DNA of 64,000 nt, taken from assembly GCA_001772335.1 (NCBI GenBank), contig METM01000029.1, positions 8,401 to 72,400 of the forward strand. The letters run 5' to 3'. Below, piece by piece: positions 7,115 through 61,901 of this stretch; the stretch's first letter is position 1; every line of letters starts with the position of its first letter. Source of the stretch: a candidate division WOR-1 bacterium RIFCSPHIGHO2_01_FULL_53_15 (GTDB lineage: Bacteria > Margulisbacteria > WOR-1 > O2-12-FULL-45-9 > XYB2-FULL-48-7). The notes under the pieces are model-generated. The model did not search any database and had not been told where the DNA came from. It saw only the letters and a list, made by a program, of their open reading frames with translations. The translations under genes and the position numbers were made by a program.

Positions 7115-8680
7115 TTACATCGATTCCGGAGCCGTAATTCCCAACAATTCTAACACATTGCGCAGAGTGATTCGAGAGGCGTCGACGAGCGTGAGGCGGG
7201 CGGGATTGCCTAGCACGCGGCACTTTTCGTAGAAGTGATGAAAAACGATCGCGAGTTCCTTGCCGTATTCTGTGATTCGGTGGGGATGTCGCAAAACCGC
7301 CGCCTCTTCCACTGACCGCGGCCACGCAAGGAGTCTCATCATCAGCTCTCTCTCCGCCGGTTCAGTTAGAGAGGATAAATCTTCTTGACCCTTGGTACTT
7401 GACCCTTGCCCCTCGCTCTCGGCCTTACGCAAGATGCTGCAGATCCTCGCATGCCCGTACTGGAGGTAATAGACCGGGTTGTCCATCGACTTCTTCTTGG
7501 CCAGCTCAAGGTCGAAATCCAGGTGTGAGTTGACGTCGGTGGCCGAGAAAAAGAAGCGCGTCGCGTCGGAGCCGATCTCGTCGATCACTTCCGCGAGCGA
7601 GACCATTTCACCCGTTCGCTTGCTCATGCGGATAGGCTCGTTGCCGCGGTAAAGGGTGACGAGCTGGCCGATGATTATTTCCAACCTATCGGCCGGCAGC
7701 CCCATCGCCTCGACTGCCGCTTTCAATCTCTTCACATAACCGTGATGGTCGGTCCCCCAAATATTAATGAGCCGCTCATAGCCGCGCGAGAATTTATCGA
7801 GATGATAAGCGAGATCGGCGGCGAAATATGTTGAATTGCCGTCGGCGCGGACGAGGACGCGGTTCTTGTCATCACCCATCTCCTGCGATTTAAACCAGAT
7901 CGCGCCTGCCTCGATGATCGTCTTGTGATTCTTTTCAAGGCGGGAGACCGCTTCCTTTACCTCGCCCTTGGCGTGGAGTTCGCTCTCATTAAAGAAACGA
8001 TCGAAAAGGACGCCGAGTTTGGCGAGAGTCGCTTTCTGCTCGGAAAGGATGTATTCAATGATATCCTCTTTGCTGTCGCCTTTAACTTCCTTGATATACG
8101 CGCCGCCGTAACCGTTTGCCGGGGTCGGTTTCCTCGCCCTGGCCGCCTGGACCGATTCCCAGAGCTTCTCGACCTGGTTGCCGATATTATTGACGTAGAA
8201 CTCGGTTTCGACTTTAAAACCGGCGGCCTTTAACAAGCGGGCAATCACGTCGCCGATCACCGCCCAACGGCCGTGCCCGACATGCAGCGGCCCAGTCGGA
8301 TTAGCCGAAACGTATTCGAGCAGAATTCTTTGACCCTTGCCACTTGACCCATGCCCCCAGCGCTGATCTTGCCTGATTATTTCCGGAATTGACTTTTGGG
8401 TCAGCTCATCTTTGATGAAGAAATTGATGAAGCCGGGCTTGACGATCTCGATTTTGCTGATAACTTCTTCGGCCCCGCCCATTTTGAGCTTCTCGGCGAT
8501 CTCTGCCGCCAGTTCCATGGGGTTGCGGGAAAGTTTCTTAGCGCCGGCAATGGCCAGATTGGTCGCAAAATCGCCGAATTCCTTGCGGGGAGATGGAGTT
8601 ATTTTGTAATCAAGCTGTATCTGGATACCGGCGGCTGACAGCGCTTTCTCGAGAAGCGATTCAATTGTTGACTGAAGCAT
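7115..8680 (-). CDS. argS: arginine--tRNA ligase
   Basis: 521 aa. SANPTGPLHVGHGR (HIGH region), MSKRTG (KMSK-like), C-terminal anticodon-binding domain ending YYLQYGHARICSILRKA. Confidence 0.95.
   Translation of the reverse strand: MLQSTIESLLEKALSAAGIQIQLDYKITPSPRKEFGDFATNLAIAGAKKLSRNPMELAAEIAEKLKMGGAEEVISKIEIVKPGFINFFIKDELTQKSIPEIIRQDQRWGHGSSGKGQRILLEYVSANPTGPLHVGHGRWAVIGDVIARLLKAAGFKVETEFYVNNIGNQVEKLWESVQAARARKPTPANGYGGAYIKEVKGDSKEDIIEYILSEQKATLAKLGVLFDRFFNESELHAKGEVKEAVSRLEKNHKTIIEAGAIWFKSQEMGDDKNRVLVRADGNSTYFAADLAYHLDKFSRGYERLINIWGTDHHGYVKRLKAAVEAMGLPADRLEIIIGQLVTLYRGNEPIRMSKRTGEMVSLAEVIDEIGSDATRFFFSATDVNSHLDFDLELAKKKSMDNPVYYLQYGHARICSILRKAESEGQGSSTKGQEDLSSLTEPAERELMMRLLAWPRSVEEAAVLRHPHRITEYGKELAIVFHHFYEKCRVLGNPARLTLVDASRITLRNVLELLGITAPESM
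7385..7412. repeat. heptamer cassette, TTGACCC family (copy in argS, 3' part)
   Basis: TTGACCC TTGGTAC TTGACCC TTGCCCC on the plus strand. It encodes GQGSSTKGQ in argS. Confidence 0.8.
8330..8357. repeat. heptamer cassette, TTGACCC family (copy in argS, 5' part)
   Basis: TTGACCC TTGCCAC TTGACCC ATGCCCC. It encodes GHGSSGKGQ just before the HIGH region. Confidence 0.8.
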
Positions 8681-10848: not shown

Positions 10849-11764
10849 GAACGATCTCCTCCGGGGTCAAACCGTATTTGGCAAGCAGCTCATCGGGTGT
10901 CCCCGATTCGCCAAAAGTATCCTTGATGCCGACGCGCGCCAGCGGCACCGGGGCGTTCTCGACCAGCACTTCAGCTACCGCGCCGCCCAGTCCGCCCAGG
11001 ATCGAGTGCTCTTCGGCGGTCACCACGGCCCCAGTCTCCTTGGCGCAGTTAACGATCAGCTCAGTGTCCAAGGGTTTAATGGTATGCAGGTTGACGACCC
11101 GCGCCTTGACCCCTTCTTTGGCCAGCAGCTCCGCTGCGTCAAGCGCCAGCGAGACCATGAGGCCGCAGGCAAATATCGTCGCGTCGCTTCCGGCGCGCAT
11201 GACCTCGCCCTTGCCGATCTTAAATTCATAATTCGGGTTATCGTGAATGACCGGCGTCTTGGGGCGGCTCAAGCGGATATACATCGGGCCGTAGAATTTG
11301 ACCGCCTCGCGGATGACTTTATCCGTCTCCACGCTGTCAGATGGAACAATGACCGTCATGTTAGGCAGGGCGCGCATGATGGCGATATCCTCATTGGCCT
11401 GGTGCGAGGCGCCGTCTTCGCCGGTCGTAATGCCGGCATGCGTCACCGCGATCTTGACATTCAAGCGCGTGTAGGCGACCGAGACCCTGACCTGGTCCCA
11501 GGCCCGGCCGGAGCCGAAAACCGCGAAGGTCGATGCGAAGACGATCTTGCCGGCGGCGGCCAGGCCAGCCGCCGTGCTGATCATGTCCTGCTCGGCCACG
11601 CCCATGTCAAAAAACCGCTCGGGGAACGCCTGGGCAAAACCCGAGGTCTTGGTCGACACCTTCAGGTCGGCGTCGAGCACGACGACATTGGGATTTTCCT
11701 TGCCGATCTCCGCCAGAGCGAGTCCGTAGGCGTCGCGCGTCGCGACCATTTTCCGTTCGGCCAT
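10814..11764 (-). CDS. transketolase, C-terminal subunit (Pyr-binding + C-terminal domains)
   Basis: 316 aa. [23 protein letters not shown] and [11 protein letters not shown] motifs. It follows the N-terminal subunit gene. Confidence 0.9.
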
Positions 11765-20856: not shown

Positions 20857-20873
20857 ATTCAACTCCTAAGTTC

Positions 20874-20908
20874 AACGTTCTACTTTCTACTGTCTACTTT
20901 CTAATATA
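20874..20908. repeat. intergenic tandem heptamers (TACTTTC type)
   Basis: AACGTTC TACTTTC TACTGTC TACTTTC TAATATA, between tRNA-Ala and secG. Confidence 0.75.
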
Positions 20909-20912
20909 AGAT

Positions 20913-20985
20913 TGGAGCCGAGCGGGATCGAACCGCTGACCTCCTCGTTGCGAACGAGGCGTTCTCCCAGCTGAACTACGGCCCC
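20913..20985 (-). tRNA. tRNA-Ala (anticodon CGC)
   Basis: Minus strand reads GGGGCCGTAGTTCAGCTGGGAGAACGCCTCGTTCGCAACGAGGAGGTCAGCGGTTCGATCCCGCTCGGCTCCA. 73-nt cloverleaf with G3:U70 alanine identity pair, anticodon loop TTCGCAA and GGTTCGATCC T-arm. CCA is not encoded. Confidence 0.95.
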
Positions 20986-25743: not shown

Positions 25744-27155
25744 TTAGCTAATTCGACCGCGGCGATGAGCGCCCGCGCTTTGTTGACCGATTCCTGATAC
25801 TCCTTCTCCGGGCTGGAATCGGCCACCACGCCGCCCCCCGCCTGGACAAAAGCCCGGTTCCCCTTGACGAGAATGGTTCTGATGGCGATGCCCGAATCAA
25901 GATCGCCGGAAAAACCAAAATAGCCGACACTGCCGGCGTAGAGGCCGCGCTTGACGTTCTCTAACTCATCGATGATCTCCATGGCTCTGACTTTCGGCGC
26001 GCCGGAAACCGTGCCGGCCGGAAAAGTCGCCTTGAGGAGCTCGACCGCGTCCAGGCCGCGGCGCAGCTTACCCGTCACGTTGCTGACGATGTGCATGACG
26101 TGGGAATATTTTTCGATCACCATCTCTTCGGTCACTTTGACACTGCCGTAGTCGCAGACGCGGCCGAGGTCGTTGCGGCCGAGGTCGACGAGCATCACAT
26201 GCTCCGCCCGCTCCTTCTTGGAAGCGAGAAGATTTGCCATCAGCCGGCGGTCCTCTTCCTCATCCTTACCCCTTTTCCTTGTCCCCGCGATCGGCCGCAG
26301 TGTCGCCCGCCCCTTTTCCAGGCGGACCATCACTTCGGGCGAGGAGCCGATGATCTTGACATCGCCTAACCGCAGGAAATACATGTAAGGCGAAGGGTTG
26401 ATGATGCGCAAGATCCGGTAGACGCCGAGCGGATCGGCCTTGAGCTTCATTTCGAACCTTTGCGACGGGACGACCTGGATGATGTCGCCGGCATTGATGT
26501 AGGCCTTGGCTTTTCTCACCATCGCTTCGAATTCAGCTTTTGTCAGGTTTGACCTGGCGTGGAAAGCGCCTCTGGCGGGCGCTGGGACCTCAAGTTCTTC
26601 TCTCTTCAAGTTGATGTTCTTGTCGAGTTTCTTTTCCAGCGCCGCGATCCTGGCGCTGGCCTGTTCGTACGCCCTTTTCGGACTGCCGGAGACATGCGCG
26701 TTGGCAATGATGAGGATCTTGTGTTTGATGTGATCGAAGGCAAGGACCGTGTCGGCCAGCATAAATTGCATCATGGGGAGCTTGAGATCGTCGGGATTCG
26801 TATCGGGTATTTTTTCGATCAGCCGGACGGCGTCGTAGCCGACGTAGCCGACCAGGCCGCCGGAAAATCTCGGCAGACCGGCCACTTCGACCGGCCGGTA
26901 TTTTTTCAGGATATTTCTGATCTCTTCAAAGGTTTTGGGCCTTGCCACCTGACCCTTGCCGCATGACCCTAAAAATGAATAGCGCGCGATCTTTTCGCCC
27001 CCCTCGACCGACTCGAGGAGGAACGAATATTCCGACTCGATTTTCTTGAAAGCCGAGACCGGCGTCTCCATATCGGCCACGATCTCTTTGTAGACCGGGA
27101 TCAGATTCCCTTTTTTCGATAGTTTAGTGAATTCTTTTTCACTTGGATAAAACAT
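25740..27155 (-). CDS. trpE: anthranilate synthase component I family (TrpE/PabB-type chorismate-utilising enzyme)
   Basis: LIPVYKEIVADMETPVSAF, FLLESVEGGEKIARYSF, GAPKVRAMEII and GGGVVADS motifs. Start placed at MFYPSE. No trpG/D/C/B/A nearby. Confidence 0.8.
   Translation of the reverse strand: MFYPSEKEFTKLSKKGNLIPVYKEIVADMETPVSAFKKIESEYSFLLESVEGGEKIARYSFLGSCGKGQVARPKTFEEIRNILKKYRPVEVAGLPRFSGGLVGYVGYDAVRLIEKIPDTNPDDLKLPMMQFMLADTVLAFDHIKHKILIIANAHVSGSPKRAYEQASARIAALEKKLDKNINLKREELEVPAPARGAFHARSNLTKAEFEAMVRKAKAYINAGDIIQVVPSQRFEMKLKADPLGVYRILRIINPSPYMYFLRLGDVKIIGSSPEVMVRLEKGRATLRPIAGTRKRGKDEEEDRRLMANLLASKKERAEHVMLVDLGRNDLGRVCDYGSVKVTEEMVIEKYSHVMHIVSNVTGKLRRGLDAVELLKATFPAGTVSGAPKVRAMEIIDELENVKRGLYAGSVGYFGFSGDLDSGIAIRTILVKGNRAFVQAGGGVVADSSPEKEYQESVNKARALIAAVELAK
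26942..26969. repeat. heptamer cassette, TTGACCC family (copy in trpE)
   Basis: TTGCCAC CTGACCC TTGCCGC ATGACCC. It encodes GSCGKGQVA. Confidence 0.75.
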
Positions 27156-27966
27156 AAAACTCCGCGATCTTTCGCAATGCATCGGCTTTCCCGCCGAAAC
27201 TTTTCAACGCTGAAATCGCTTTTATCTTTTCTTGCTCGGCTAAAGTTCTTGACTTTTCCAAGCCGATCAAACGAGGAAAACCCTTGCCGATATCGGCCTT
27301 GACCGGCTTGCCGATCTTTTCGGCTGTCGCCGTCACGTCAAGTATATCATCGGCGATCTGAAAGGCAAGACCGAGATGCTCCGCATATTTAGTCAGGGCT
27401 TTGATCTGCGCGGCTGACGCGCCGCAGATCAACGCGGAACCGCGCACGCAGGCCTTAAACAAAGCCGCCGTCTTCCAGCTGTGTATCTTTTTCAGATCGG
27501 CAAGAGAAACCTTCCTCTTTTTCGATTCAATATCGACCGCCTGCCCCTCGACCACCGTAAGCAGCGCCCGAGCCAATTCGCGCGCTGCCGCCGGCTGATC
27601 AGCGATGATCTCGAAAGCCAGCGTATTGAGCGCGTCGCCGGCCAGGATAGCGGCCGCTTCGCCGAAAACCTTGTGACACGCTGGCTTGCCGCGGCGGAAA
27701 TCTGAGTTGTCCATCGCCGGCAGATCGTCATGAATAAGGGTAAAAGTGTGGATCAGCTCGACAGCGCAGGCAAAGGGGAGAACTTTTTTCTCCGGACGGC
27801 CAAGGACTTTAGCCGTCGCCAGGCAAAGTACGGGGCGAAAGCGCTTACCCCCGGCAAAGACAGAATACCTCATCGCCTTTGCCAATTTACCTTTTCTTGG
27901 CAGATAGCGATCGAGTTCGCGGTCTATTCTTTTTTTACCGCCTGACAGTAATGCCTCGATCCCCAA
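27139..27966 (-). CDS. ispA: polyprenyl diphosphate synthase (FPP/GGPP synthase type)
   Basis: First DDxxD region [19 protein letters not shown] and second FQIADDILD. Confidence 0.85.
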
Positions 27967-28708
27967 GATAATCCTTTATCTCCTTTATAGTCATCTCTTT
28001 ATAATGTAGGATCGAAGCGAGCAAAGCCGCGTCCGCCTTGCCTTTAACGAACGCCTCATAGACATGCTCGTTCTTCCCCGCCCCGCCGGAGGCAATGACC
28101 GGGACTTCGACCGCGTCTGCAATCGCCCGCGTCAACTCCAATTCATAGCCGGCCTTTGTCCCGTCCCGGTCCATGCTCGTCAGGAGTATCTCTCCCGCCC
28201 CGAGCTTAACCGCTTTCTTCGCCCACTCGACCGCATCAAGTCCCGTCGGCGTCCGCCCGCCGTGCGTGTAAACTTCCCAAGTCGTCCCTCGTCCTTCGTC
28301 TTTCGTCCTTCGTTTCGCGTCTATCGCTAAAACCACACACTGGCTCCCAAACTTTTCGGCCCCCTTCTCGATCAGTGATGGGTCGCGCACCGCCGCCGTA
28401 TTGACGGAGATCTTGTCGGCTCCGGCGGAGAGCAATTCTCTCATCGTTTCGACATCATAGATCCCGCCGCCGACGGTGAAAGGGATAAAGATCGTCTCAG
28501 CGACTTTCTTGACGACCTCGAGCATGATATATCTTTTATCGGAAGAAGCGGTAATATCGAGGAACACAAGTTCATCGGCTCCCTCTTTATCATAGACGGC
28601 CGCTAACTCGACCGGGTCGCCCGCGTCCTTGAGATCGACAAATTTCGTCCCCTTGACGACGCGCCCTTCGGTCACGTCAAGGCAGGGAATTATTCTTTTG
28701 GCTAACAT
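27935..28708 (-). CDS. hisF: imidazole glycerol phosphate synthase cyclase subunit HisF-family protein
   Basis: [12 protein letters not shown]...[13 protein letters not shown]...SVNTAAV...ASGGAG. Start at MLAKRI (28708). No other his genes are adjacent. Confidence 0.8.
28281..28322. repeat. tandem heptamers (TTCGTCC type) inside hisF
   Basis: GTCGTCC CTCGTCC TTCGTCT TTCGTCC TTCGTTT CGCGTCT. It encodes [12 protein letters not shown]. Confidence 0.75.
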
Positions 28709-45600: not shown

Positions 45601-47004
45601 CTATTTCGGCGGCGCTATCTTCGGCAATTCCCCGTAAACCTTCTTGTAGATCTCGAGATACCGATCCTTGCCGCCGATCAGCATCATCGTCAGCGGCATG
45701 ACATCTTTGGCGACTTTCGTCATCTCGGCCGCGAGCTCCTGGATCTCCCACTGGGCGTGCGGGTCTTCGCGTAGTCTTGAGATATGGTAGAGCTCGCGCG
45801 CGTTCGTCGTCATCAGCACGCGCTTCCTGTGCGCTCCGGTCAGGACATATTCGGCCGCCCGCTGGTCGATCTTAGCTATTTCGCGGTAAACAGATTCCGT
45901 CTCTTTGCATATTCCCTTAAATCTTCCCTCATACCCCTTACCCCTTACCTTTTCCGGTATTACTATCCCCAACTCCGGTTCGTATAATTGTGAAGTTATC
46001 GTCGCGACCCGGTGGCGCTTCAACTGCCCGAAACAGCCGGACGACATGACGAGGTCGTAGGTCAGGTGGCTATGCTCGAATTCGCGCAGGGTCGAATCAT
46101 AGAACTCCATGTGCCGGCAGGCCGTCATGACCGCCCTCTCCCGTTCGTGTTTCTTCATATCCTTGGCGACGCGCAGGGAATTCTGGAACGAGATCTGCGA
46201 TGAAGTGTGGAGGAGCGAAGCGACGAGCTTGATATCCGCGTTCCTGGTGTAGTCGAGGAGCGTCGTTCTCCGGCTGACGCGCCGTTTGCGCTCCCATTTC
46301 CCCCGGAAGTAGGCCCGCAGTTCGGGATAGGTTTTCTGGTCAAAGTCATTGGCGGCGGTAAAAAGGATGATCGACGGCGCGATATTGGCCGCAAGCTCAT
46401 ACATCGTCTTGCCGATCTCTCTCACCTCGGCCAGCCCCGACGAAGCGAACCGCCGCACGAGCAGTTCCAGGTTGCGGGCGTTGATCGTCAGTCCGACCTG
46501 GCCTAATGTGCAAAGTGGAGTAATATATCTCGCATCTTCCGGCTCGATCCCCTTTCCGATCATCTCCGCGTAGAACTTGTTCTGCTTTTCAATTATCTCT
46601 CTGAATCTTACCTCATACCCCTTACCCCTTACCTCATCCGGTAAGATGTAACTCCCCTCAAGCTTCTGATACCTCTGCGACTTCTCCGTATAAGAACAGA
46701 GCCGGAACTTTTCTATCTCCTCTAACGCCAAACGCGAAACGTCGATCAGGTCGAAATTAAAAACGGCGTGTTCGGCCACCGAATGGTGGCCCATTTTGAA
46801 GATGATATTGGAATTCGACTTGCGGGCTTTCTCGACCTCGGCGCGGGCCGCCTGGCGCAGTTCGTCGATCGGTCGGGGATCGCGGGAGATGCGAGCATAG
46901 GAGGCAGAGAGGGTCTCGGGGGTCACGTCCTGGCGGTTTTGTCCGGCGGTCAATTCCGCGATGACATCCGCGTCGACGTTATAACCCGCGAGAAGAACCT
47001 TCAT
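45601..47004 (-). CDS. thyX: FAD-dependent thymidylate synthase, tandem two-domain form
   Basis: 467 aa, about twice the usual ThyX size. Domain 1 carries KFRLCSYTEKSQRY (near-complete RHRxxSxxxxSxRY). Domain 2 carries RHRVATITSQLY (a shortened, degenerate version). Confidence 0.85.
   Translation of the reverse strand: MKVLLAGYNVDADVIAELTAGQNRQDVTPETLSASYARISRDPRPIDELRQAARAEVEKARKSNSNIIFKMGHHSVAEHAVFNFDLIDVSRLALEEIEKFRLCSYTEKSQRYQKLEGSYILPDEVRGKGYEVRFREIIEKQNKFYAEMIGKGIEPEDARYITPLCTLGQVGLTINARNLELLVRRFASSGLAEVREIGKTMYELAANIAPSIILFTAANDFDQKTYPELRAYFRGKWERKRRVSRRTTLLDYTRNADIKLVASLLHTSSQISFQNSLRVAKDMKKHERERAVMTACRHMEFYDSTLREFEHSHLTYDLVMSSGCFGQLKRHRVATITSQLYEPELGIVIPEKVRGKGYEGRFKGICKETESVYREIAKIDQRAAEYVLTGAHRKRVLMTTNARELYHISRLREDPHAQWEIQELAAEMTKVAKDVMPLTMMLIGGKDRYLEIYKKVYGELPKIAPPK
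45927..45954. repeat. heptamer cassette, CCCCTTA family (thyX domain 2)
   Basis: CCTCATA CCCCTTA CCCCTTA CCTTTTC. It encodes KVRGKGYEG. Confidence 0.8.
46611..46638. repeat. heptamer cassette, CCCCTTA family (thyX domain 1)
   Basis: CCTCATA CCCCTTA CCCCTTA CCTCATC. It encodes EVRGKGYEV. 26 of 28 nt are identical to the copy at 45927. Confidence 0.8.
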
Positions 47005-47356: not shown

Positions 47357-47385
47357 ATATTATCTCAAAATGGGGGCATTTTCAA
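47357..47385 (-). promoter_or_regulatory. sigma70-like promoter for trxA-thyX
   Basis: The minus strand reads TTGAAA-17 nt-TAATAT, followed by GAGGAGG SD and the trxA ATG at 47324. Confidence 0.45.
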
Positions 47386-48350
47386 CCGGCACTTTCAATC
47401 TCCTCATAAACAATTAACTGCAGGTCTTTTATCAGGGTATTCCAATACTTGGGCGTCCCGGATTGCGGGAAGTTATTCTCAAAATCTGGTTCGGCGGACT
47501 GGACGGCCAGCCAGGCGGCATAGTGGATGAGGCGCATGCCGCGCAGAGCGGGAATTAATTTCAATCCCTGTCGGTCAAAGGGGCGAAAGGTTTCGTAACC
47601 ATCAATGAACCAGTCGAGCTCCCGCTCCGACTTCTCCACCGTATCCGGCAGTAACAGCCAGAGGTCCTGCGCCGGCGGGCTAAAACACATGTCGTCAAAA
47701 TCGACGACAAAATAACCCTCATTCGGACGAAAAATAATATTCCCCTTGTGGAAATCGCCGTGCAGGAGGATAAATTTATCTTCCTTAAACAGCGGATCGG
47801 CTTTCTGGATAAAGAGTTCGGTCGCTTTGGTTAATGATGCTTTAAAATCGGGCAGGATAAAATTTGAGCGCAGGATCAGCTCCAGATGCTGGCCGGTGGC
47901 GACCGCCGGGCGCCAGTACATCCGGGTCGAAGCGCCGTGCCTCCCGCCCACCAGATGGAGACGGCCGATCGTGCGGCCGAGGGTCTTCCAGCCCTCTTTG
48001 TCGAATTCGTCAACCGCTCTCCCCCCTTTTTTTGGGAAAAGCGCGTAACTGATGTTCTCAAAATCAAAAAGCGTCGCGCCCTCAATGGCAGTCGGCACGA
48101 TGACGGGAACCTCGCTTTCGTGAAGTTCGCTCAAAAAGCGATGCTCTTCGAGGATGATCGGCCTGGCCCAGCGGCCGGGGCGGTAAAACTTGACGATAAC
48201 CCGCTCACCCGAATCGTGTTTCTCCAATTCGTAAACCCGGTTGATGTAGCTGTTGCGCTTGAGGCAGATGTTGCTCAACTTGACCTCAACAGTTTTTTCG
48301 ACTGTCGTAAAAATATTTTCCGGCGTCAGTGATTTCCAGATGGTTTCCAT
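47382..48350 (-). CDS. srkA: SrkA/RdoA (YihE)-type stress-response Ser/Thr kinase (APH fold)
   Basis: NSYINRVYEL...VKFYRPGRWARPIILEEHRFL..., LHGDFHKGNII and VVDFDD motifs. Start at METIWK (48350) with GAGGA SD. The start at 48371 lies inside the palindromic element. Confidence 0.8.
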   Translation of the reverse strand: METIWKSLTPENIFTTVEKTVEVKLSNICLKRNSYINRVYELEKHDSGERVIVKFYRPGRWARPIILEEHRFLSELHESEVPVIVPTAIEGATLFDFENISYALFPKKGGRAVDEFDKEGWKTLGRTIGRLHLVGGRHGASTRMYWRPAVATGQHLELILRSNFILPDFKASLTKATELFIQKADPLFKEDKFILLHGDFHKGNIIFRPNEGYFVVDFDDMCFSPPAQDLWLLLPDTVEKSERELDWFIDGYETFRPFDRQGLKLIPALRGMRLIHYAAWLAVQSAEPDFENNFPQSGTPKYWNTLIKDLQLIVYEEIESAG

Positions 48351-48355
48351 TATAT

Positions 48356-48469
48356 CCTCATCCGCCGACACAAACCGGCCCCCTTCTCCCGAAGGGAGAA
48401 GGGAAATGCATTTTTGTTTTCCCCTCTCCCGGAGGGAGAGGGGGGAAGGTTTAACGCCAGCGGGTGAGG
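48356..48469. repeat. nested palindromic element, long form (copy C)
   Basis: Arms CCTCATCCGCCG / CAGCGGGTGAGG. Hairpins CCCTTCTCCC-gaa-GGGAGAAGGG and CCCCTCTCCC-gga-GGGAGAGGGG. Spacer motifs ACAAACCG and AGGTTTAA are shared with copy B. Confidence 0.8.
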
Positions 48470-48523: not shown

Positions 48524-48808
48524 ATGATCGAGAAAAAACACGTCGACGGCAAGAACAAGGGCGAAATATTAATATACGCCCTCTCCACCTGCGGCTGGTG
48601 CAGGAAGGCCAAAAATATCCTTAAACAGTTAGGGATCGCTTACGACTATATCGATGTCGACCTCTTGAGTGACGAGAAATCGACAAAGATCGAGAATGAA
48701 GAGGTTAAAAAATGGAACCCGGCCTGCACTTATCCAACGATTGTCATCAACAATCAACGGTCGATCAATAAATTCAACGAAGACAAGATCAGGGAACTTG
48801 GCCAATGA
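48524..48808 (+). CDS. glutaredoxin-like small thiol-disulfide protein
   Basis: 94 aa. [18 protein letters not shown] (CxxC in a glutaredoxin-fold context). 4-nt overlap with the downstream FTRc gene. Confidence 0.75.
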
Positions 48809-49311
48809 GCTTTGAGCCGACCCGGGCGCAGGTCAATGAACTCTATACCCGGTTAAAGAACGAAGCCGAGGGCTCGGGCTACCATCTCCACCCCGATGTG
48901 GAATTCACAAAATGGCTCGTGCGAGGCATTCTGATCAACGAAGCCCGCTACGGCTACTGGAACTGCCCCTGCCGTCGAGCCACCAATAATAAGCAGGCCG
49001 ACCTCGATATCATCTGCCCCTGCGACTACCGCGATCCTGATTTGAACGATTACGATGCTTGCTACTGCGCCCTGTATGTCTCGACAAAGATCTTAAAAGG
49101 AGAAAAAGAAGCTATGCCAATACCGGAAAGAAGGCCTGCGCCGGAACTAAGAGCGCAGAACGCGGAACACAGAGCACAGGAGGGAATTGGTAATTTAAAC
49201 TATCCTGTCTACCGCTGCCGCGTCTGCGGCTATCTCTGCGCCCGGAACGAACCGCCCGAGGTCTGCCCCATCTGCAAGGCCAAAAAAGAGCGGTTCAAAA
49301 GATTTATCTAA
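48805..49311 (+). CDS. ferredoxin:thioredoxin reductase catalytic-subunit domain fused to a C-terminal rubredoxin-like domain
   Basis: CPC-x16-CPC-x8-CYC arrangement (WNCPCRR...IICPCDY...DACYCALY) typical of FTRc. C-terminal YRCRVCGY...VCPICKAKK (Cx2C...Cx2C). Confidence 0.8.
49147..49181. repeat. tandem heptamers (CGCAGAA type) forming the FTRc-rubredoxin linker
   Basis: CTAAGAG CGCAGAA CGCGGAA CACAGAG CACAGGA. It encodes [13 protein letters not shown]. Confidence 0.65.
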
Positions 49312-50750
49312 CCCTTCACAACCACCATCGGCCTTAACCGGACTACCTTTTTGGCCAGGCCAGAATTGTGAACGACGTCGACGACTTCGCGCACATCTTT
49401 GTAGGCCTCCGGCGCTTCTTCGACCAGGCCTTTGCGGCTGGCCGACCTGACCACGATCCCCTGTTTATCAAGATCAGCCATCAGCTCTTTGTAGTTGTAT
49501 TTCCGCAGGGCGGCCGAGCGGCTCAAGCGCCTCCCCGCCCCGTGGCAAACAGAACCCCATGTCTCATTCATCGCCAGTTCGGTCCCTACCATAATATAGG
49601 AATATCTCCCCATATCGCCAGGCACGAGGACCGGATCGCCCGGAAAAGCCCGCGTCGCCCCTTTGCGGTGTACGCATAGCAATTTTTCTATCTCGCTACC
49701 CCCTACCCCCTTAACCTTGTGTTTCTCCATCTTCGCTATGTTATGACAAACATCATAGATCAAGCTGATGCCAAGCTGCTGCGGCGTAGCGCCCATGGCT
49801 TTGGCAAATGATTCCCTCGTCCAGTGCATGATGAGCTGGCGATTGCACCAGGCGAAGTTGGCGGCGGCGCACATGGCCGAGAAATACTGCTTGCCTTCGG
49901 GCGAATTGACCGGCGCGCAGACGAGCTGGCGGTCTGGCAAGTAGATATTGTATTTGGCGACGGCCTTGTGCAGTATATTGATGTAATCGGAGCAGACCTG
50001 GTGGCCAAAGCCGCGCGAACCGGTGTGGACCATGATCGTCACCTGGTCTTTTTGCAGGCCGAAGGCATTAGCGGCCGCTTCATCATATATCTCTTCGACG
50101 AACTGGACTTCGAGAAAGTGATTGCCGGAGCCCAGTGTCCCGACCTGGTCTTTGCCCCGCTCCCTGGCGTGATGCGAAACCGCCGAGGGGTCGGCCCCCG
50201 CGAGCGCCCCGTTCGCTTCAGTGTGCTCTATGTCGTCATTGACCCCATAGCCGTTCTTGACCGCCCACTTCGCCCCTTCGGTCAGCACCTTGTCCATTTC
50301 TTTTTCGGAGAGCGAAATAACGCCGGTCGAGCCAACGCCGGAGGGGACCTCGCGTGCCAGCTCGTTGGCTATGTCATTAATTTTCTTCCGGACTTCATCT
50401 TTATGAAGGTTGGTGCGCAAAACGCGAACGCCGCAATTAATGTCGTAGCCGACACCGCCGGGCGAAATGACCCCACCCTGCTCCGGATCAAACGCCGCCA
50501 CACCGCCAATGGCAAAGCCGTAGCCGAGATGGATATCGGGCATGGCCAGGGAATAACCGACGATCCCCGGCAAGCAAGCGACATTGGCAACCTGGACATG
50601 GGCATTCTCTTTGTAGAGGAGCGGCAGCATCGCTTCGTCGGCGTAGAGGAGACCGTCGGTCCTCATTTCCGGCTTAAAACTGCGGGGGATCAGCCAGCGA
50701 TAATCGTCAACTTTTTGAAAAACCGTCTCCCAGCCGGGCATCAATGGCAC
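49308..50750 (-). CDS. rtcB: RNA-splicing ligase RtcB
   Basis: 480 aa. [43 protein letters not shown] and HRKGAT motifs. Confidence 0.9.
49692..49712. repeat. heptamer cassette related to the CCCCTTA family (in rtcB)
   Basis: CTCGCTA CCCCCTA CCCCCTT. It encodes KGVGGSE. Confidence 0.6.
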
Positions 50751-50761
50751 CTCCGAGGATA

Positions 50762-51490
50762 TTATATACCGAAATCAATGCCAAAACATTCGCTGAACCC
50801 CTTGGCCAGCGCTGTGCTGATCTCGCAAAAGCCAACTTCTCGGCCAAGAACTTCTTCAACGCTCACGGCGTTATGATCAGAATAGGGCTCTTTAAGGACA
50901 GGAAATATTTCTTCCGGCGGCCGGCGGACAAAAATCGATCCCTGCTGGAGCAGAGCCCGCCTGCCCCTCTTCTGCGCGCTGCCGACGATCTTCTTCCCGC
51001 TAACAACGATCTCATATTCTGCAGGGAAAGAGAAGCACAACGAGGTTCTTGATTTTTGATTTGGGCTTTTAGATTTGTTTTGAAGTTTGATGTTTGAGGT
51101 TTGAAGTTCTGCCGCAACCCCGATTCCCGCCAGTCCGGCGACAACTGCCTCCGATATCTTCTTATATGAAGGGACCAGCCCTTTGGGCAGTAACGGATTC
51201 CCAATCTCGGTCACGATCGAGTAAGTCACTTCCGCTTCGTTGTGAAAAACGATGCCGCCGCCGGTCGGCCTTTTCACGATATCCCAGCCTAAGGCCCTAG
51301 CCATTTTCCCATCTATCAATCTATCTTCATTCTGCGAATAACCGAGCGAGATGCAGTTGGGTTGCCAGGAATAAATGCGCAAAGTGGAAGGGATGGCGCC
51401 ACGTTCAAGGTCGTTGAAAAGCCCGAGATCGATTCCCATATTGGCCTGGCCGCGGAGGCAAGGGATTGTGATCAGCCGCCAGTTTTCCAC
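50762..51490 (-). CDS. lipoate-protein ligase / octanoyltransferase family protein (BPL_LplA_LipB domain)
   Basis: [28 protein letters not shown] and [11 protein letters not shown] motifs. GTG start at 51490 (VENWRLI) is suggested; ATG 51439 is possible. The longer ORF overlaps gcvPB. Confidence 0.7.
51046..51108. repeat. 63-nt heptamer array, TGAAGTT family (in lipoate ligase-like gene)
   Basis: TTCTTGA TTTTTGA TTTGGGC TTTTAGA TTTGTTT TGAAGTT TGATGTT TGAGGTT TGAAGTT. It encodes [21 protein letters not shown]. Confidence 0.8.
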
Positions 51491-52884
51491 GATAGGACCG
51501 GTTCGCGCGCAGCTTTGGTTTCGTCCAATCTTCTGACAGGAGTATCGTGCGGAGCCGACTTCACCAGCTCCGGATCGGTCTCGCACTCTTTAGCGATCTT
51601 GATCATCGCCTCACAAAACGCGTCGAGCGTTTCCTGTGATTCACTCTCCGTCGGCTCGATCATCAGCGATTCCTCAACGATGAGGGGGAAGTAGATCGTC
51701 GGCGGGTGAAAACCATAGTCGATCAGGCGTTTGGCGATATCGAGCGCCTTGATACCGTATTTCTCCTTCTGCCATTTGGCCGAGATGACGAACTCATGCT
51801 GGCATTGCCTGTCATAAGGCAAATAATAATGTTCTTTGAGCTTGTTCATCATGTAATTGGCGTTCTCGACCGCTTTTTCCGATACTTTCTTCAGCCCCTC
51901 CGCCCCCAGCGAAAGAATATAGGCATAGGCCTTGATGATGACTCCAATGTTGCCGTGGAAGGAGTGGACTCTGCCTATGGACTTATCGTAATGCGTAACG
52001 CGTAACGCGTAATGCGAATTTTCTTTGACCACCCGGGGAATCGGCAAAAACGGCTCAAGTTTCTTGTTGACGCCGACCGGACCCGAGCCCGGGCCGCCGC
52101 CGCCGTGCGGTGTTGAAAAAGTTTTGTGGAGGTTAAAATGAGCGACATCAAAGCCGAGATCGGCCGGCCGACAGATGCCAAGGTTGGCATTGGCATTGGC
52201 GCCGTCATAATAGAGGAGGCCGCCAGATTTGTGGACGATCTCCGCGACCTCGAGAATATGCTCATCGAACAGCCCAAGCGTGTTCGGATTGGTCAGCATT
52301 AAACCGGCCGTGTCTTCTCCCACCGCTTTTTTCAGTTCATCAACATTGATATTGCCCCGGCCGTTCGACTTGATGACGACCGGCGTAAAGCCAACCATCG
52401 CAACCGACGCCGGATTTGTTCCATGCGATGAATCGGGGATCACTACCTTGACCCTTGCTGCTTGACCCATGTCCCTGTGATAAGCTTTCATCATCATCAG
52501 CGCCGTCAGCTCGCCGTGAGCTCCGGCCGCCGGCTGGAGCGTGAACGCGTCGAAACCGAAGATCGCGCACATGTATTTTTCAAAGTTATAAAGCAGTTCC
52601 AGTATCCCCTGGCTCTGCGCCGCAGCCTGCAAGGGGTGCGCGCCGGCAAAGCCGGGCAGGCGCGCGATATCCTCGTTGACCTTCGGGTTATATTTCATCG
52701 TGCAGGAGCCGAGCGGATAAAAATGTGTGTCGACCGAAAAATTCTTCTGCGAAAGCCGCGTAAAATGGCGGATAACATCAAGCTCGGTGCGCTCCGGCAA
52801 GCTCAACTCTTTTCTTAAGAGGTCCGGCGGTATCAATTCTTCAAGTTTTTCGACCGGTACGTCAAACTCTGGCAGAGAGACCAT
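51472..52884 (-). CDS. gcvPB: glycine dehydrogenase (decarboxylating) subunit 2
   Basis: 470 aa. [14 protein letters not shown] and [16 protein letters not shown] (PLP-Lys region). Confidence 0.9.
51987..52014. repeat. tandem heptamers (CGTAACG type) inside gcvPB
   Basis: CGTAATG CGTAACG CGTAACG CGTAATG. It encodes HYALRVTHY. Confidence 0.75.
52448..52475. repeat. heptamer cassette, TTGACCC family (copy in gcvPB, different reading frame)
   Basis: TTGACCC TTGCTGC TTGACCC ATGTCCC. It is read as DMGQAARVK, shifted by one nt relative to the argS/trpE copies. Confidence 0.8.
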
Positions 52885-55692: not shown

Positions 55693-55728
55693 TTCCCTGA
55701 TATCCGGATTCCCGGATATTCTGATCTC

Positions 55729-56385
55729 CTAATTATCGATCCAGCCCATCGGCAGAAAACCGACACGCATCATCGTTTCGTCGGTGATGCCTTTCGGCTC
55801 ACCCCTTAAATGTTTTTCGATATATTTTGAGAGGAGGTCAACTTCGAGATTGACCCGGTCGCCGACGCTCCGCTCGCCGAGATTCGTAGCTTTGACAGTT
55901 TGCGGGATGACGGCAATGGTGACCAGGCCGTCGCGGATGTCCGCCACGGTCAAGCTGAGCCCTTCAACGGCAATGGGACCTTTGATAACAATGTAACGGA
56001 GGAGTTCGCTGGGGACGGATAACTGCAGATCGACGCCCTCGACCCTGGCGATCTTGGCCCTGATCTCGCCGACGCCGTCAATGTGGCCGGTAACTAGATG
56101 GCCGCCCAGCCGGCCGGCGACCGGCAGCGCGCGTTCGAGATTGACTTTATCGCTGATGCGCAGGTCGCCGAGAGTGGTTTTTTTGAGGGTTTCAGCAGAG
56201 AGGTCGAATTCGGCAAAACCGCGGCGCTCGTGCGTCACTGTCAGGCAAGCGCCGTTGACGGCGATGCTGTCGCCGAACTTGAGGTCATCAAAGATTTTCG
56301 GCGCGGCGACCATCAGTTTGGCCGCCTGCTGGCCGCGGATGAGAGAGGCGACAACGCCGACCTGCTCAATTAATCCGGTGAACAT
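55729..56385 (-). CDS. ribE: riboflavin synthase (alpha chain)
   Basis: MFTGLIEQVG start, SIAVNGACLTV and a duplicated lumazine-binding repeat. Start corrected to 56385. Confidence 0.9.
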   Translation of the reverse strand: MFTGLIEQVGVVASLIRGQQAAKLMVAAPKIFDDLKFGDSIAVNGACLTVTHERRGFAEFDLSAETLKKTTLGDLRISDKVNLERALPVAGRLGGHLVTGHIDGVGEIRAKIARVEGVDLQLSVPSELLRYIVIKGPIAVEGLSLTVADIRDGLVTIAVIPQTVKATNLGERSVGDRVNLEVDLLSKYIEKHLRGEPKGITDETMMRVGFLPMGWIDN

Positions 56386-60791: not shown

Positions 60792-61901
60792 TCAGGCAGT
60801 CGTGTAATATTTGCCTGGCAGCTGGCGGACCGCTTTCTTGATCTCCAGCATCATTAAGAGCGAAGATGCCTGGTGGACCGGCAGGCCGGCCTCAGCGGCA
60901 ACACTGTCCAAATGTTTCGATTCGTCGGTCAATGCATCATAGATCTTCGCTTCTTCCGGCGTCAGGTTCGCCGGTCTGGTTTTTGGCGTTTGTGACTTGT
61001 TAGTTGTTTTGAAGTTTGATGTTTGAAGTTGGATGTTTAATTCCTCGAGAACGTCTTCAACCGTTTCGACAAGCTTCGCTCCTTGCTTGATCAGCCAGTG
61101 CGGCCCTTTTGATTGCTCGAGGCCCACGTTGCCCGGCACGGCAAAAACTTCCCGCCCCTGCTCCAGCGCTGCCTTGGCTGTGATCATCGCCCCGCTGTCG
61201 TAATGGCCTTCAACGACGATGACACCGAGAGAAAGCCCTGATATTATCCTGTTCCGCCGGGGGAAATTCCCTTTTTCTCCCCGCGCACCCATGGGAAATT
61301 CAGAGACCAGCGCGCCGCGGCTCTCGATCTCGCGGGACATCTCTTTATTATGCGGCGGATAAATGACATCCACCCCGCAGCCAAAGACCGCGATCGTTCG
61401 TCCATTCGCTTCGAGTGCGCCTTGATGGGCCGCCGTATCAATACCCGAGGCCAGACCCGAGACGATCGTCATGCCCAAAGCCGCCAGTTCTCCCGCGAAC
61501 TTCTTGGCCGTTTCCAGGCCGTAACGGGAAGCTCGCCTTGTGCCAACAATGGCTAACGACCTGCCGTCCGAAGGCAGAAGATCGCCTTTAACATAAAGCA
61601 CGGGCGGCGGATCATAAATATTTTTTAGGTTTTTGGGATAATTTTTGTCGGCCAGCGTGAGAATTGAGACCCTTTGCTTTTCGACCTCAGCCAGTTCGGC
61701 GGCAGGATCGAGCTGACCACGGCTTTGGATAAAGGCGGCAGCCGCCGTTCTGTTTATGCCTTCGACCGCGAAAATATCTTTTTCATCCGCTCGCCAAACC
61801 GCTTCAATTGATTCGAACCTGCCCCAGAGTTTATTAATTGTGACGGCGCCAAGGCCGGGGATCTTGTTTATCGCCAGCCAGTATTTCAGATCTTCATTCA
61901 T
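60792..61901 (-). CDS. dprA: DNA-processing protein DprA (Smf)
   Basis: NKIPGLGAVTINKL (SAM/HhH-like), the Rossmann core IVSGLASGIDTAAH...GVIVVEG, and a C-terminal winged helix. Start at MNEDLKY (61901). Confidence 0.9.
   Translation of the reverse strand: MNEDLKYWLAINKIPGLGAVTINKLWGRFESIEAVWRADEKDIFAVEGINRTAAAAFIQSRGQLDPAAELAEVEKQRVSILTLADKNYPKNLKNIYDPPPVLYVKGDLLPSDGRSLAIVGTRRASRYGLETAKKFAGELAALGMTIVSGLASGIDTAAHQGALEANGRTIAVFGCGVDVIYPPHNKEMSREIESRGALVSEFPMGARGEKGNFPRRNRIISGLSLGVIVVEGHYDSGAMITAKAALEQGREVFAVPGNVGLEQSKGPHWLIKQGAKLVETVEDVLEELNIQLQTSNFKTTNKSQTPKTRPANLTPEEAKIYDALTDESKHLDSVAAEAGLPVHQASSLLMMLEIKKAVRQLPGKYYTTA
60975..61037. repeat. heptamer array, TGAAGTT family (in the dprA linker)
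   Basis: ...GTTGTTT TGAAGTT TGATGTT TGAAGTT GGATGTT. A 23-nt block (ttgttttgaagtttgatgtttga) is identical to 51076-51098. It encodes LQTSNFKTTNKSQTPKTRP. Confidence 0.8.

Follow-up and report, generated by a model that had tools for sequence, protein, structure and literature searches.

Why do short tandem arrays of seven-nucleotide units occur inside the genes of conserved housekeeping enzymes, and what process could place and maintain them there? The question is raised by a 64,000-nt stretch of DNA (positions 8,401 to 72,400 of contig METM01000029.1, assembly GCA_001772335.1; hereafter the window) from the candidate division WOR-1 bacterium RIFCSPHIGHO2_01_FULL_53_15, a member of Margulisbacteria, with a G+C content of ~55% and the majority of genes on the minus strand. 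An examination of its letters and open reading frames (ORFs), the sequence-only reading, had noted period-7 arrays with different units in hisF, in gcvPB, in the linker between the FTRc and rubredoxin domains of a plus-strand gene and in one intergenic spacer, and had suggested that some process acting across the genome gives rise to heptamer arrays or tolerates them. The analysis described below shows that heptamer arrays, rather than being peculiar to four sites, are a lineage-wide property of Saganbacteria/Margulisbacteria, specific to period 7 and located at orthologous sites with lineage-specific units.

Over-representation of period 7 was assessed on the window and ~106 kb of relatives, using an array scan with simple match/mismatch scoring (main cut-off, score ≥10) and tandem-repeat detection by Tandem Repeats Finder (TRF), with weak sites sought down to a score of 30. 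At the main cut-off the window contained seven period-7 arrays as compared with 0.22 expected from dinucleotide shuffles of the window and 1.05 upon codon shuffling within 56 ORF-based genes (one of these being the intergenic array, left unshuffled). Neighbouring periods in the range of 4 to 13 yielded just 0–1 arrays each in the same scan of the window; the count for period 14 was also seven, these being the period-7 arrays met again at double unit length. The signal, which the sequence-only reading had proposed to compare with shuffled and codon-shuffled controls, is thus enriched over both. At a score of ≥8, 10 of 11 arrays were located in coding sequence (coding fraction of the window, 0.86). 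The hisF, gcvPB and intergenic arrays had TRF scores of 45–50, and identical arrays were recovered in independent assemblies (ENA, JGI, Logan).

For comparison, 179 other loci were fetched; loci of relatives are labelled L and their proteins P, each followed by a number. The control set for array density consisted of 157 loci from other lineages, and the GcvPB matches listed from other phyla, all of them ≤63% identical, were used as negative-control loci. The density per 100 kb amounted to 10.9 for the window; seven loci from Margulisbacteria had 7.6, and the 157 loci from other lineages 1.4–2.2. Arrays were also present in a few control loci (one from Chloroflexia, one from Nitrospirae and some from Clostridia metagenome-assembled genomes). 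The enrichment in the window, combined with the excess in the seven Margulisbacteria loci, supports the suggested genome-wide process of generating or tolerating heptamer arrays, and the comparison with close relatives revealed such arrays at the same protein sites, as detailed below for individual enzymes. The gene identifications originally made from the letters proved correct by Pfam analysis.

The hisF gene (27935–28708, minus strand; Pfam His_biosynth, 2.2e-86) encodes a protein of 257 aa from the methionine of MLAKR, which is the actual start; an alternative reading as a 273-aa ORF was dropped. A protein identical to it at every residue is present in several metagenome assemblies from the Rifle aquifer and is assigned to candidate division WOR-1; the nearest relatives bear the names Saganbacteria or Margulisbacteria. 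Its heptamer array (28281–28322, minus strand; sense unit AGGACGA, ~5 units plus a degenerate one) appears on the plus strand as GTCGTCC CTCGTCC TTCGTCT TTCGTCC TTCGTTT CGCGTCT, and was reported by TRF at 28282–28313 with period 7, 4.6 copies, 88% matches and a score of 50. The six units of TTCGTCC type and the encoded peptide described earlier were therefore confirmed by letters, TRF and translation, the last unit being degenerate. The array lies 2–3 residues past the Asp of the AIDAK motif, presumably the counterpart of the catalytic Asp130 of Thermotoga HisF. Relative to solved HisF structures (4evz) it forms a 6-residue insertion immediately after this motif.

An alignment of 37 HisF proteins 79–92% identical to that of the window contains one hypervariable segment, which extends from AIDAK to WEVYTHGG. 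Among 115 relatives this loop has 103 distinct sequences and a bimodal length distribution (5–7 residues in 67 proteins and 11–14 in 38), and ~57% of HisF relatives are devoid of any array. A metagenome contig scan with HisF yielded three close relatives. At the DNA level, the loop is (ACGAAGG)n in the window, (ACGAAGG)3 followed by two degenerate units in L173, (GGGTCAA)4 in L174, GAGTCGC repeated ~5 times in L175, CGAAGCT CGAAGAG CGAAGGA in L176 and GGGTCGA GGGGCGG GGGGCGA in L095, with no array in the loops of L094 and L096. Heptamer arrays occupy the loop also in HisF genes as distant as 59–68% identity (the group including L119, L141, L148, L149 and L150, with arrays in at least two of L141, L148 and L149, which are 59–67% identical). 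The 33-nt array common to the window and L173 is identical at 31 of 33 nt, and at 10 of its 11 third codon positions, versus 42% of third positions outside the array. The two HisF proteins are 82% identical; the neighbours of L173 have different loops, and the HisF proteins closest to that of the window, 94% identical apart from the loop, have a loop of the KGQGS type or none.

A filled and an empty hisF allele, L176 (10001–10783) and L180 (289–1050), differ at the loop by exactly 21 nt. There are only two differences between them over the first 368 nt and ~5% thereafter, the switch occurring near the array loop, which looks like a homologous recombination breakpoint between alleles. In the hisF gene of L093 (10001–10798) the loop contains, instead of a heptamer array, a 21-nt hairpin CATGAACC-atta-CGGTTCATG encoding the peptide HEPLRFM, with related peptides in P0092 and P0107; this may be a different small insertion at the same permissive site.

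The second enzyme, GcvPB (gene at 51472–52884, minus strand; 470 aa, assigned by Pfam GDC-P and GcvP2_C as well as by homologues), contains two hypervariable sites in an alignment of 36 proteins 72–97% identical. Site A (52446–52470, minus strand), which lies after KAYH and was absent from the earlier list of arrays, consists of GGGTCAA GCAGCAA GGGTCAA and encodes MGQAARVK. Site B (51987–52016, minus strand) contains four copies of the sense unit CGTTACG, seen on the plus strand at 51987–52014 as CGTAATG CGTAACG CGTAACG CGTAATG. The letters, the TRF result (4.3 copies, 91% matches, score 46) and the translation to HYALRVTHY are all in agreement with the sequence-only reading. In relatives, the DNA of site A is GGGTCAA GGGTCCA GGGTCCG (L177), (AAGTCAA)4 (L178) or (CTGTCGA)3 plus two further units (L179). 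At site B, (CGTTACN)4 is common to the window, L177 and L178, and L179 has CAGCTTT CAGCTTT CTGCTGA CCGCTTC, equal in length to the other three.

The peptides encoded at both sites have a clear 7-residue periodicity: over ~100 relatives, residues seven positions apart were identical with a frequency of 0.352 in site A and 0.267 in site B, compared with 0.04–0.14 at other lags. Site B is represented by 94 distinct sequences among 100 relatives and, despite this diversity, is 14 residues long in 86 of them; the mean pairwise identity is 28% within the site versus 85% across the flanking 130 residues. Third codon positions of site B are identical between the window and L177 in nine of nine cases, compared with 52% outside the array. 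In P0121, a GcvPB protein 97% identical to that of the window, the 12 residues of site B account for 6 of 13 differences, a comparison made at the protein level with a record of uncertain quality that also carries substitutions at otherwise invariant positions. A compensated frameshift as the origin of this difference was rejected, as neither alternative frame of the window DNA yields the P0121 peptide. Relative to most of 16 homologues from other phyla, the site B segment of the window is one residue longer than its KYYLDYDRP-type counterpart, and 2 of the 16 have longer insertions there. Much longer insertions at site A or B were observed in P0151, P0220 and P0146, e.g. DSTGSLRLNVAASKKQVSEPYY, QSTCLPASSRGSARGAGTAKY and KSKVKSLPAGRHGQKSKV, the last of them being located within an array. 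In L018, the gcvPB gene of Clostridiales bacterium UBA4821, an array GGTCAGA AGTCAGA GGTCAGA (10884–10903) is part of an insertion of 15 residues that shortly precedes the site B counterpart, indicating that the permissive region near site B is used outside Margulisbacteria too, in this case in Firmicutes.

How these arrays are read follows from the unit length. Since seven is not a multiple of three (7 = 2×3+1), successive units are translated in frames 0, 1 and 2, so that three units make up one 7-residue period. Owing to this rotation no base of the unit is synonymous in all of its copies. A repeat at the protein level, i.e. a peptide motif kept in a single frame, was ruled out, as a single array presents its unit in all three frames. 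Members of one unit family also differ in phase between genes: the copies of the CTTCAAA family in lplA and dprA are in different codon phases, as is the gcvPB copy of the GGTCAAG family relative to the copies in argS and in a TrpE-like gene. The use of one family in different frames in different genes makes the repeat a DNA-level rather than a peptide-level feature.

The sequence-only reading had further argued that three units, 21 nt or seven codons, would keep the reading frame. The lag-7 periodicity of the GcvPB peptides and the 21-nt difference between hisF alleles are in line with this argument; on the other hand, most arrays are 16–35 nt long and include partial units, the loop steps are of +4 to +7 residues, and the arrays in gcvPB site B and ThyX replace sequence without any change of length. 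Host genes are intact in all relatives. Twelve contigs from the same population (several samples and assemblers, 99.6–100% identical) contained no insertion or deletion in any array, the single gap being a run of N. This absence of length differences among strain contigs argues that the arrays are not phase-variable or contingency loci. A difference in gene content between strains was observed in L087, a strain contig without the stretch 47546–48148 of an APH-family kinase gene (47382–48371) that is present in the window, L088 and L089.

The intergenic array (20870–20908; plus-strand unit TTCTACT, ~4 units), noted earlier at 20874–20908, was confirmed by TRF, which placed it at 20878–20903 with 3.7 copies and 89% matches. 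It is found 10 nt past the 3′ end of a tRNA-Ala (CGC) gene (20913–20985, minus strand). As to a possible role of the array, neither a terminator-like nor a promoter-like site was detected, and Rfam matched no known RNA in the window besides the tRNA.

The remaining site, a stretch AGAGCGC AGAACGC GGAACAC AGAGCAC at 49147–49181 (plus strand), was not upheld as an array. It belongs to the gene at 48805–49311 (plus strand), whose product has a Pfam FeThRed_B domain at residues 16–100 and a rubredoxin-like domain at residues 136–165. The letters and the peptide are indeed present, but the periodicity is at chance level: no TRF row was obtained for this stretch down to a score of 30, and its scan score is 8, at which 1.4 matches per window are expected by chance. 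Most likely, it is a chance occurrence or a fully decayed array. The further suggestion that an array supplied the linker of this fusion was not supported either. The fusion is found in Elusimicrobia, WOR-3 and Margulisbacteria with a total length of ~165–173 aa and a linker conserved in length and residues; the linkers of 111 homologues displayed no lag-7 excess (0.113 vs 0.064–0.138 at other lags), and no period 7 was visible in the linker DNA of L178. The weaker idea that arrays can form inter-domain linkers holds for DprA, although its two domains are paired as usual for this protein rather than newly fused. The segment that joins the Rossmann-like domain to the winged-helix domain (60978–61037, minus strand) is a degenerate array of ~9 units of the CTTCAAA family, also in L178 and L179, and its onset is the point where the alignment to a solved DprA structure stops.

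The units of the four sites noted first are single-copy in the window, and three other families are dispersed over 2–4 loci each. The earlier description of the former units as private is therefore accurate within the window but not beyond it, as L173 has the hisF unit, and L177 and L178 have the gcvPB unit, at the corresponding sites. Among the dispersed families, GGTCAAG with its alternating 14-nt structure is found twice in argS (7384–7413, encoding EGQGSSTKGQE, and 8330–8355, encoding GHGSSGKGQ; both minus strand), once in a chorismate-binding (TrpE-like) gene (26940–26970, minus strand, with a 14-nt super-period) and once at gcvPB site A. The sequence GGTCAAGNNNCAAGGGTC occurs four times in 64 kb versus 0.06 expected, on the sense strand every time, with only one further match among the 179 other loci. 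No terminal inverted repeats, target-site duplications or shared flanks were found for the four copies of this family. The CTTCAAA family includes, in addition to the DprA linker, an array detected by TRF in the lipoate-protein ligase gene lplA (51079–51108, minus strand), in a loop that is hypervariable in length among relatives; the lplA and dprA arrays share the order of unit variants and are identical at 27 of 30 nt.

The third family, GGGGTAA, is found in both halves of ThyX (45601–47004, minus strand), a protein of 467 aa with two Thy1 domains formed by an internal duplication. The array in the second half (45930–45950, minus strand) encodes VRGKGY, and that in the first half (46609–46635, minus strand) matches it over 24 identical nt at paralogous positions, although the halves are otherwise only 32% identical at the amino acid and 49% at the nucleotide level. 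The ThyX of L176 has the same architecture and length. A related GGGGGTA array of 2.3 units in rtcB (49696–49711, minus strand) encodes KGVGGS.

In L178 the AAGTCAA unit is not confined to gcvPB site A but is also present between ribE and ribBA, in the spacer, and at the N-terminus of RibBA; the window and L177 have no array at the rib site. The spacer of the window (55695–55730, minus strand) contains an inverted repeat ATATCCGG-gaa-TCCGGATAT, and its counterparts a 7-unit AAAGTNA array in L178 and a TTAATTG array in L179. Some units consist of a 6-nt palindrome plus one base: GTCGAC+T (L179, 10471–10502), TCGCGA+G (L175, 10404–10432) and ACGCGT+T (window, 51987–52016). Such units represent ~3–4 of ~20 families versus roughly 10% expected by chance; the respective arrays are nearly self-complementary and could form hairpins. 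The idea of G-quadruplex formation was set aside, as G-runs are missing from most units and number fewer than four in the G-rich arrays.

What process could account for these observations? With somewhat more confidence than doubt, we favor an interpretation of the heptanucleotide tandem arrays as DNA-level microsatellites, similar to the short tandemly repeated repetitive (STRR) sequences of cyanobacteria, that persist only in permissive loops, linkers and spacers under selection. According to this scenario, the process inferred to create and homogenize the arrays is slipped-strand mispairing or template switching over short distances, with a register of 7 nt. Selection would purge them from essential genes with the exception of permissive surface loops and inter-domain linkers, and would retain just those net lengths that preserve the reading frame. 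Frame rotation together with homogenization between units would then conserve the unit at the nucleotide level, yet let it differ from lineage to lineage. The outcome is a set of small hydrophilic loops that evolve fast in enzymes conserved elsewhere, and not on/off switches.

Several observations weigh against this interpretation. Slippage by a single unit frameshifts an essential gene, which makes the homogenization of units in arrays of fixed length hard to explain by simple slippage, and the length of site B is indeed fixed in most GcvPB relatives. A nearly identical hisF array is present in two lineages whose nearest relatives have other loops or none; the paralogous positions of ThyX share an identical segment at unchanged length, and identical unit families recur at unrelated loci of one genome. 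For all three of these patterns, copying from one array to another is a better fit than slippage confined to the locus. The lack of length polymorphism in the 12 strain contigs implies that slippage, if any, is slow on that scale. Finally, the scenario does not account for a register of seven.

The same patterns are the strength of a serious, though less probable, alternative, in which segments of ~20–35 nt, either minute dispersed elements or patches converted ectopically, are copied and pasted from one array locus to another with slippage playing a minor role. It would account for the four sense-strand occurrences of GGTCAAGNNNCAAGGGTC with their shared alternating 14-nt structure, for the common order of unit variants in lplA and dprA, for the identity of the ThyX segments and their insertion by replacement, for the matching hisF arrays of phylogenetically separated lineages, and for the presence of AAGTCAA at both gcvPB site A and the rib locus of L178 when the window and L177 have none at the latter. 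However, the copies lack the terminal inverted repeats, target-site duplications and shared flanks of such elements (as established for the four GGTCAAG copies), their lengths and boundaries vary, the units at one site form a graded series between lineages (GGGTCAA, GGGTCCA, AAGTCAA, AAATCAA, AACTCAA) as in descent with homogenization, the sole filled/empty hisF pair examined resembles ordinary homologous recombination between alleles, and no candidate enzyme was identified. A bolder proposal, to which we give a low probability, is that an active process in Margulisbacteria/Saganbacteria writes or converts heptamer arrays from a small repertoire of unit families into permissive segments of essential genes, often in a length-neutral manner. 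This process, possibly inherited from an ancestor shared with Cyanobacteria, would also be the source of STRR sequences, and it would re-randomize loops, including the one near the catalytic Asp of HisF, with units kept at the nucleotide level.

A selected function, either at the level of nucleic acid (protein-binding heptamers, translational pausing, DNA or RNA structure) or through adaptive variation of protein loops, appears improbable. It could be invoked to explain the conservation of synonymous positions within arrays, the persistence of array positions and lengths across proteins 73–84% identical and the proximity of the hisF array to the AIDAK Asp; regulatory or G-quadruplex roles have been suggested for other heptamer repeats (PMC4679880, PMC4692102). 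The diversity of units at each site, reflected in the near-uniqueness of site B and HisF loop sequences, nevertheless means that no single binding motif or structure is conserved, over half of HisF relatives do without an array, and the hosts are cytosolic housekeeping enzymes with no obvious cause for diversifying selection. In fact, frame rotation with homogenization can account for synonymous conservation with no need for a function. To an origin of the periodicity in chance, codon usage, amino-acid repeats or assembly error we assign almost no weight. Only the FTRc-rubredoxin signal, taken alone, behaves this way; codon and dinucleotide shuffles yield almost no arrays, independent assemblies contain them, relatives have them at matching sites, and for the hisF, gcvPB and intergenic arrays the shuffles and the 12 strain contigs refute this origin.

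The record of heptamer repeats goes back to 1990 in cyanobacteria and to 2007 in bacteria at large, and such repeats are regarded as mostly intergenic. Fixed in-gene sites that can be compared over hundreds of metagenomic relatives constitute a natural experiment, with the conserved flanks as an internal clock, in which array birth, homogenization, replacement and loss could be measured and slippage separated from copy-paste. On the practical side, array sites inflate apparent divergence and cause alignment artefacts in the markers hisF, gcvPB, argS and dprA; they also flag insertion-tolerant loops of possible use in protein engineering.

The closest known system is provided by long simple sequence repeats (SSRs). 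In the literature (Mrazek, Guo and Shah 2007, as summarized in PMC4679880 and PMC4692102), heptanucleotide repeats are described as the most abundant class of long SSRs in many bacterial genomes, polymerase slippage is proposed as their origin, and long SSRs are said to be mainly intergenic, units that are not a multiple of three being avoided in coding regions. The arrays described here resemble them in their tandem 7-nt units, the excess of period 7 over other lengths, the many unit sequences and the scattered phylogeny. Head-to-tail 7-nt copies beyond chance, the hallmark of long SSRs, were found in the hisF, gcvPB and intergenic arrays and not in the FTRc-rubredoxin linker. The difference is that almost all arrays of the window are genic; they reside in essential enzymes, their sites are kept in the orthologues of a phylum-level lineage, and the encoded peptides have a 7-residue periodicity. 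Our literature search turned up no account of heptamer arrays for Margulisbacteria or Saganbacteria.

Cyanobacteria, to which this group is reported to be a sibling lineage (PMC6349859), are known to have STRR heptamers (Mazel et al. 1990, as cited in PMC4692102) and, in Nostoc, GGGGA(C/T)T repeats (PMC4692102). Like STRR sequences, the arrays are tandem heptamers; three of their unit families are dispersed over 2–4 loci each in the window, the units of the four sites noted first being single-copy there, and some of their units are G-rich (GGGGTAA, GGGGGTA) as in Nostoc. The units of STRR1–3 are reportedly CCCCAGT, TTGGTCA and CAACAGT, and none of them is matched by the window units AGGACGA, CGTTACG and TTCTACT. 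The host is a WOR-1 bacterium rather than a cyanobacterium, and the window arrays are short (2.5–5 units) and mostly genic, in contrast to the mainly intergenic STRR sequences. A separate array in L094 (19898–19928; ATTGGTC ATTGGAA ATTGGTA ATTGGTC) has the unit TTGGTCA, which we take to be that of STRR2, a match for which chance is not negligible. With units, location and host all different, the link to cyanobacterial STRR sequences appears to be one of resemblance only.

Phase-variable contingency loci, e.g. of Haemophilus and Neisseria, in which SSRs drive on/off switching, likewise contain in-gene tandem repeats with a unit that is not a multiple of three. In contrast, the arrays studied here show no length polymorphism and occupy mid-gene positions in essential housekeeping genes rather than surface or virulence genes. 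The tandem repeats of Borgs, which create disordered protein regions, share with them the nucleotide-level, in-gene and fast-evolving character and the addition of hydrophilic protein segments; the in-gene repeats of Borgs, however, are said to have longer units that are multiples of three, as opposed to the 7-nt units of tiny arrays in chromosomal core genes. The small dispersed repeats (SDR) of Nostoc punctiforme, reportedly 21–27 nt long (Elhai et al. 2008), are comparable in size (~20–30 nt), in their occurrence at many loci including in-gene ones and in their presence or absence at one site between strains, but the window arrays are internally periodic and have neither inverted-repeat ends nor a hairpin. 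Of the features expected for mobile elements, presence and absence at a site was seen (L176/L180, 21 nt, in alleles that look recombinant), and inverted ends and target duplications were not found. Overall, the arrays of the window and its relatives represent a known bacterial type of repeat in an unusual form, inside genes.

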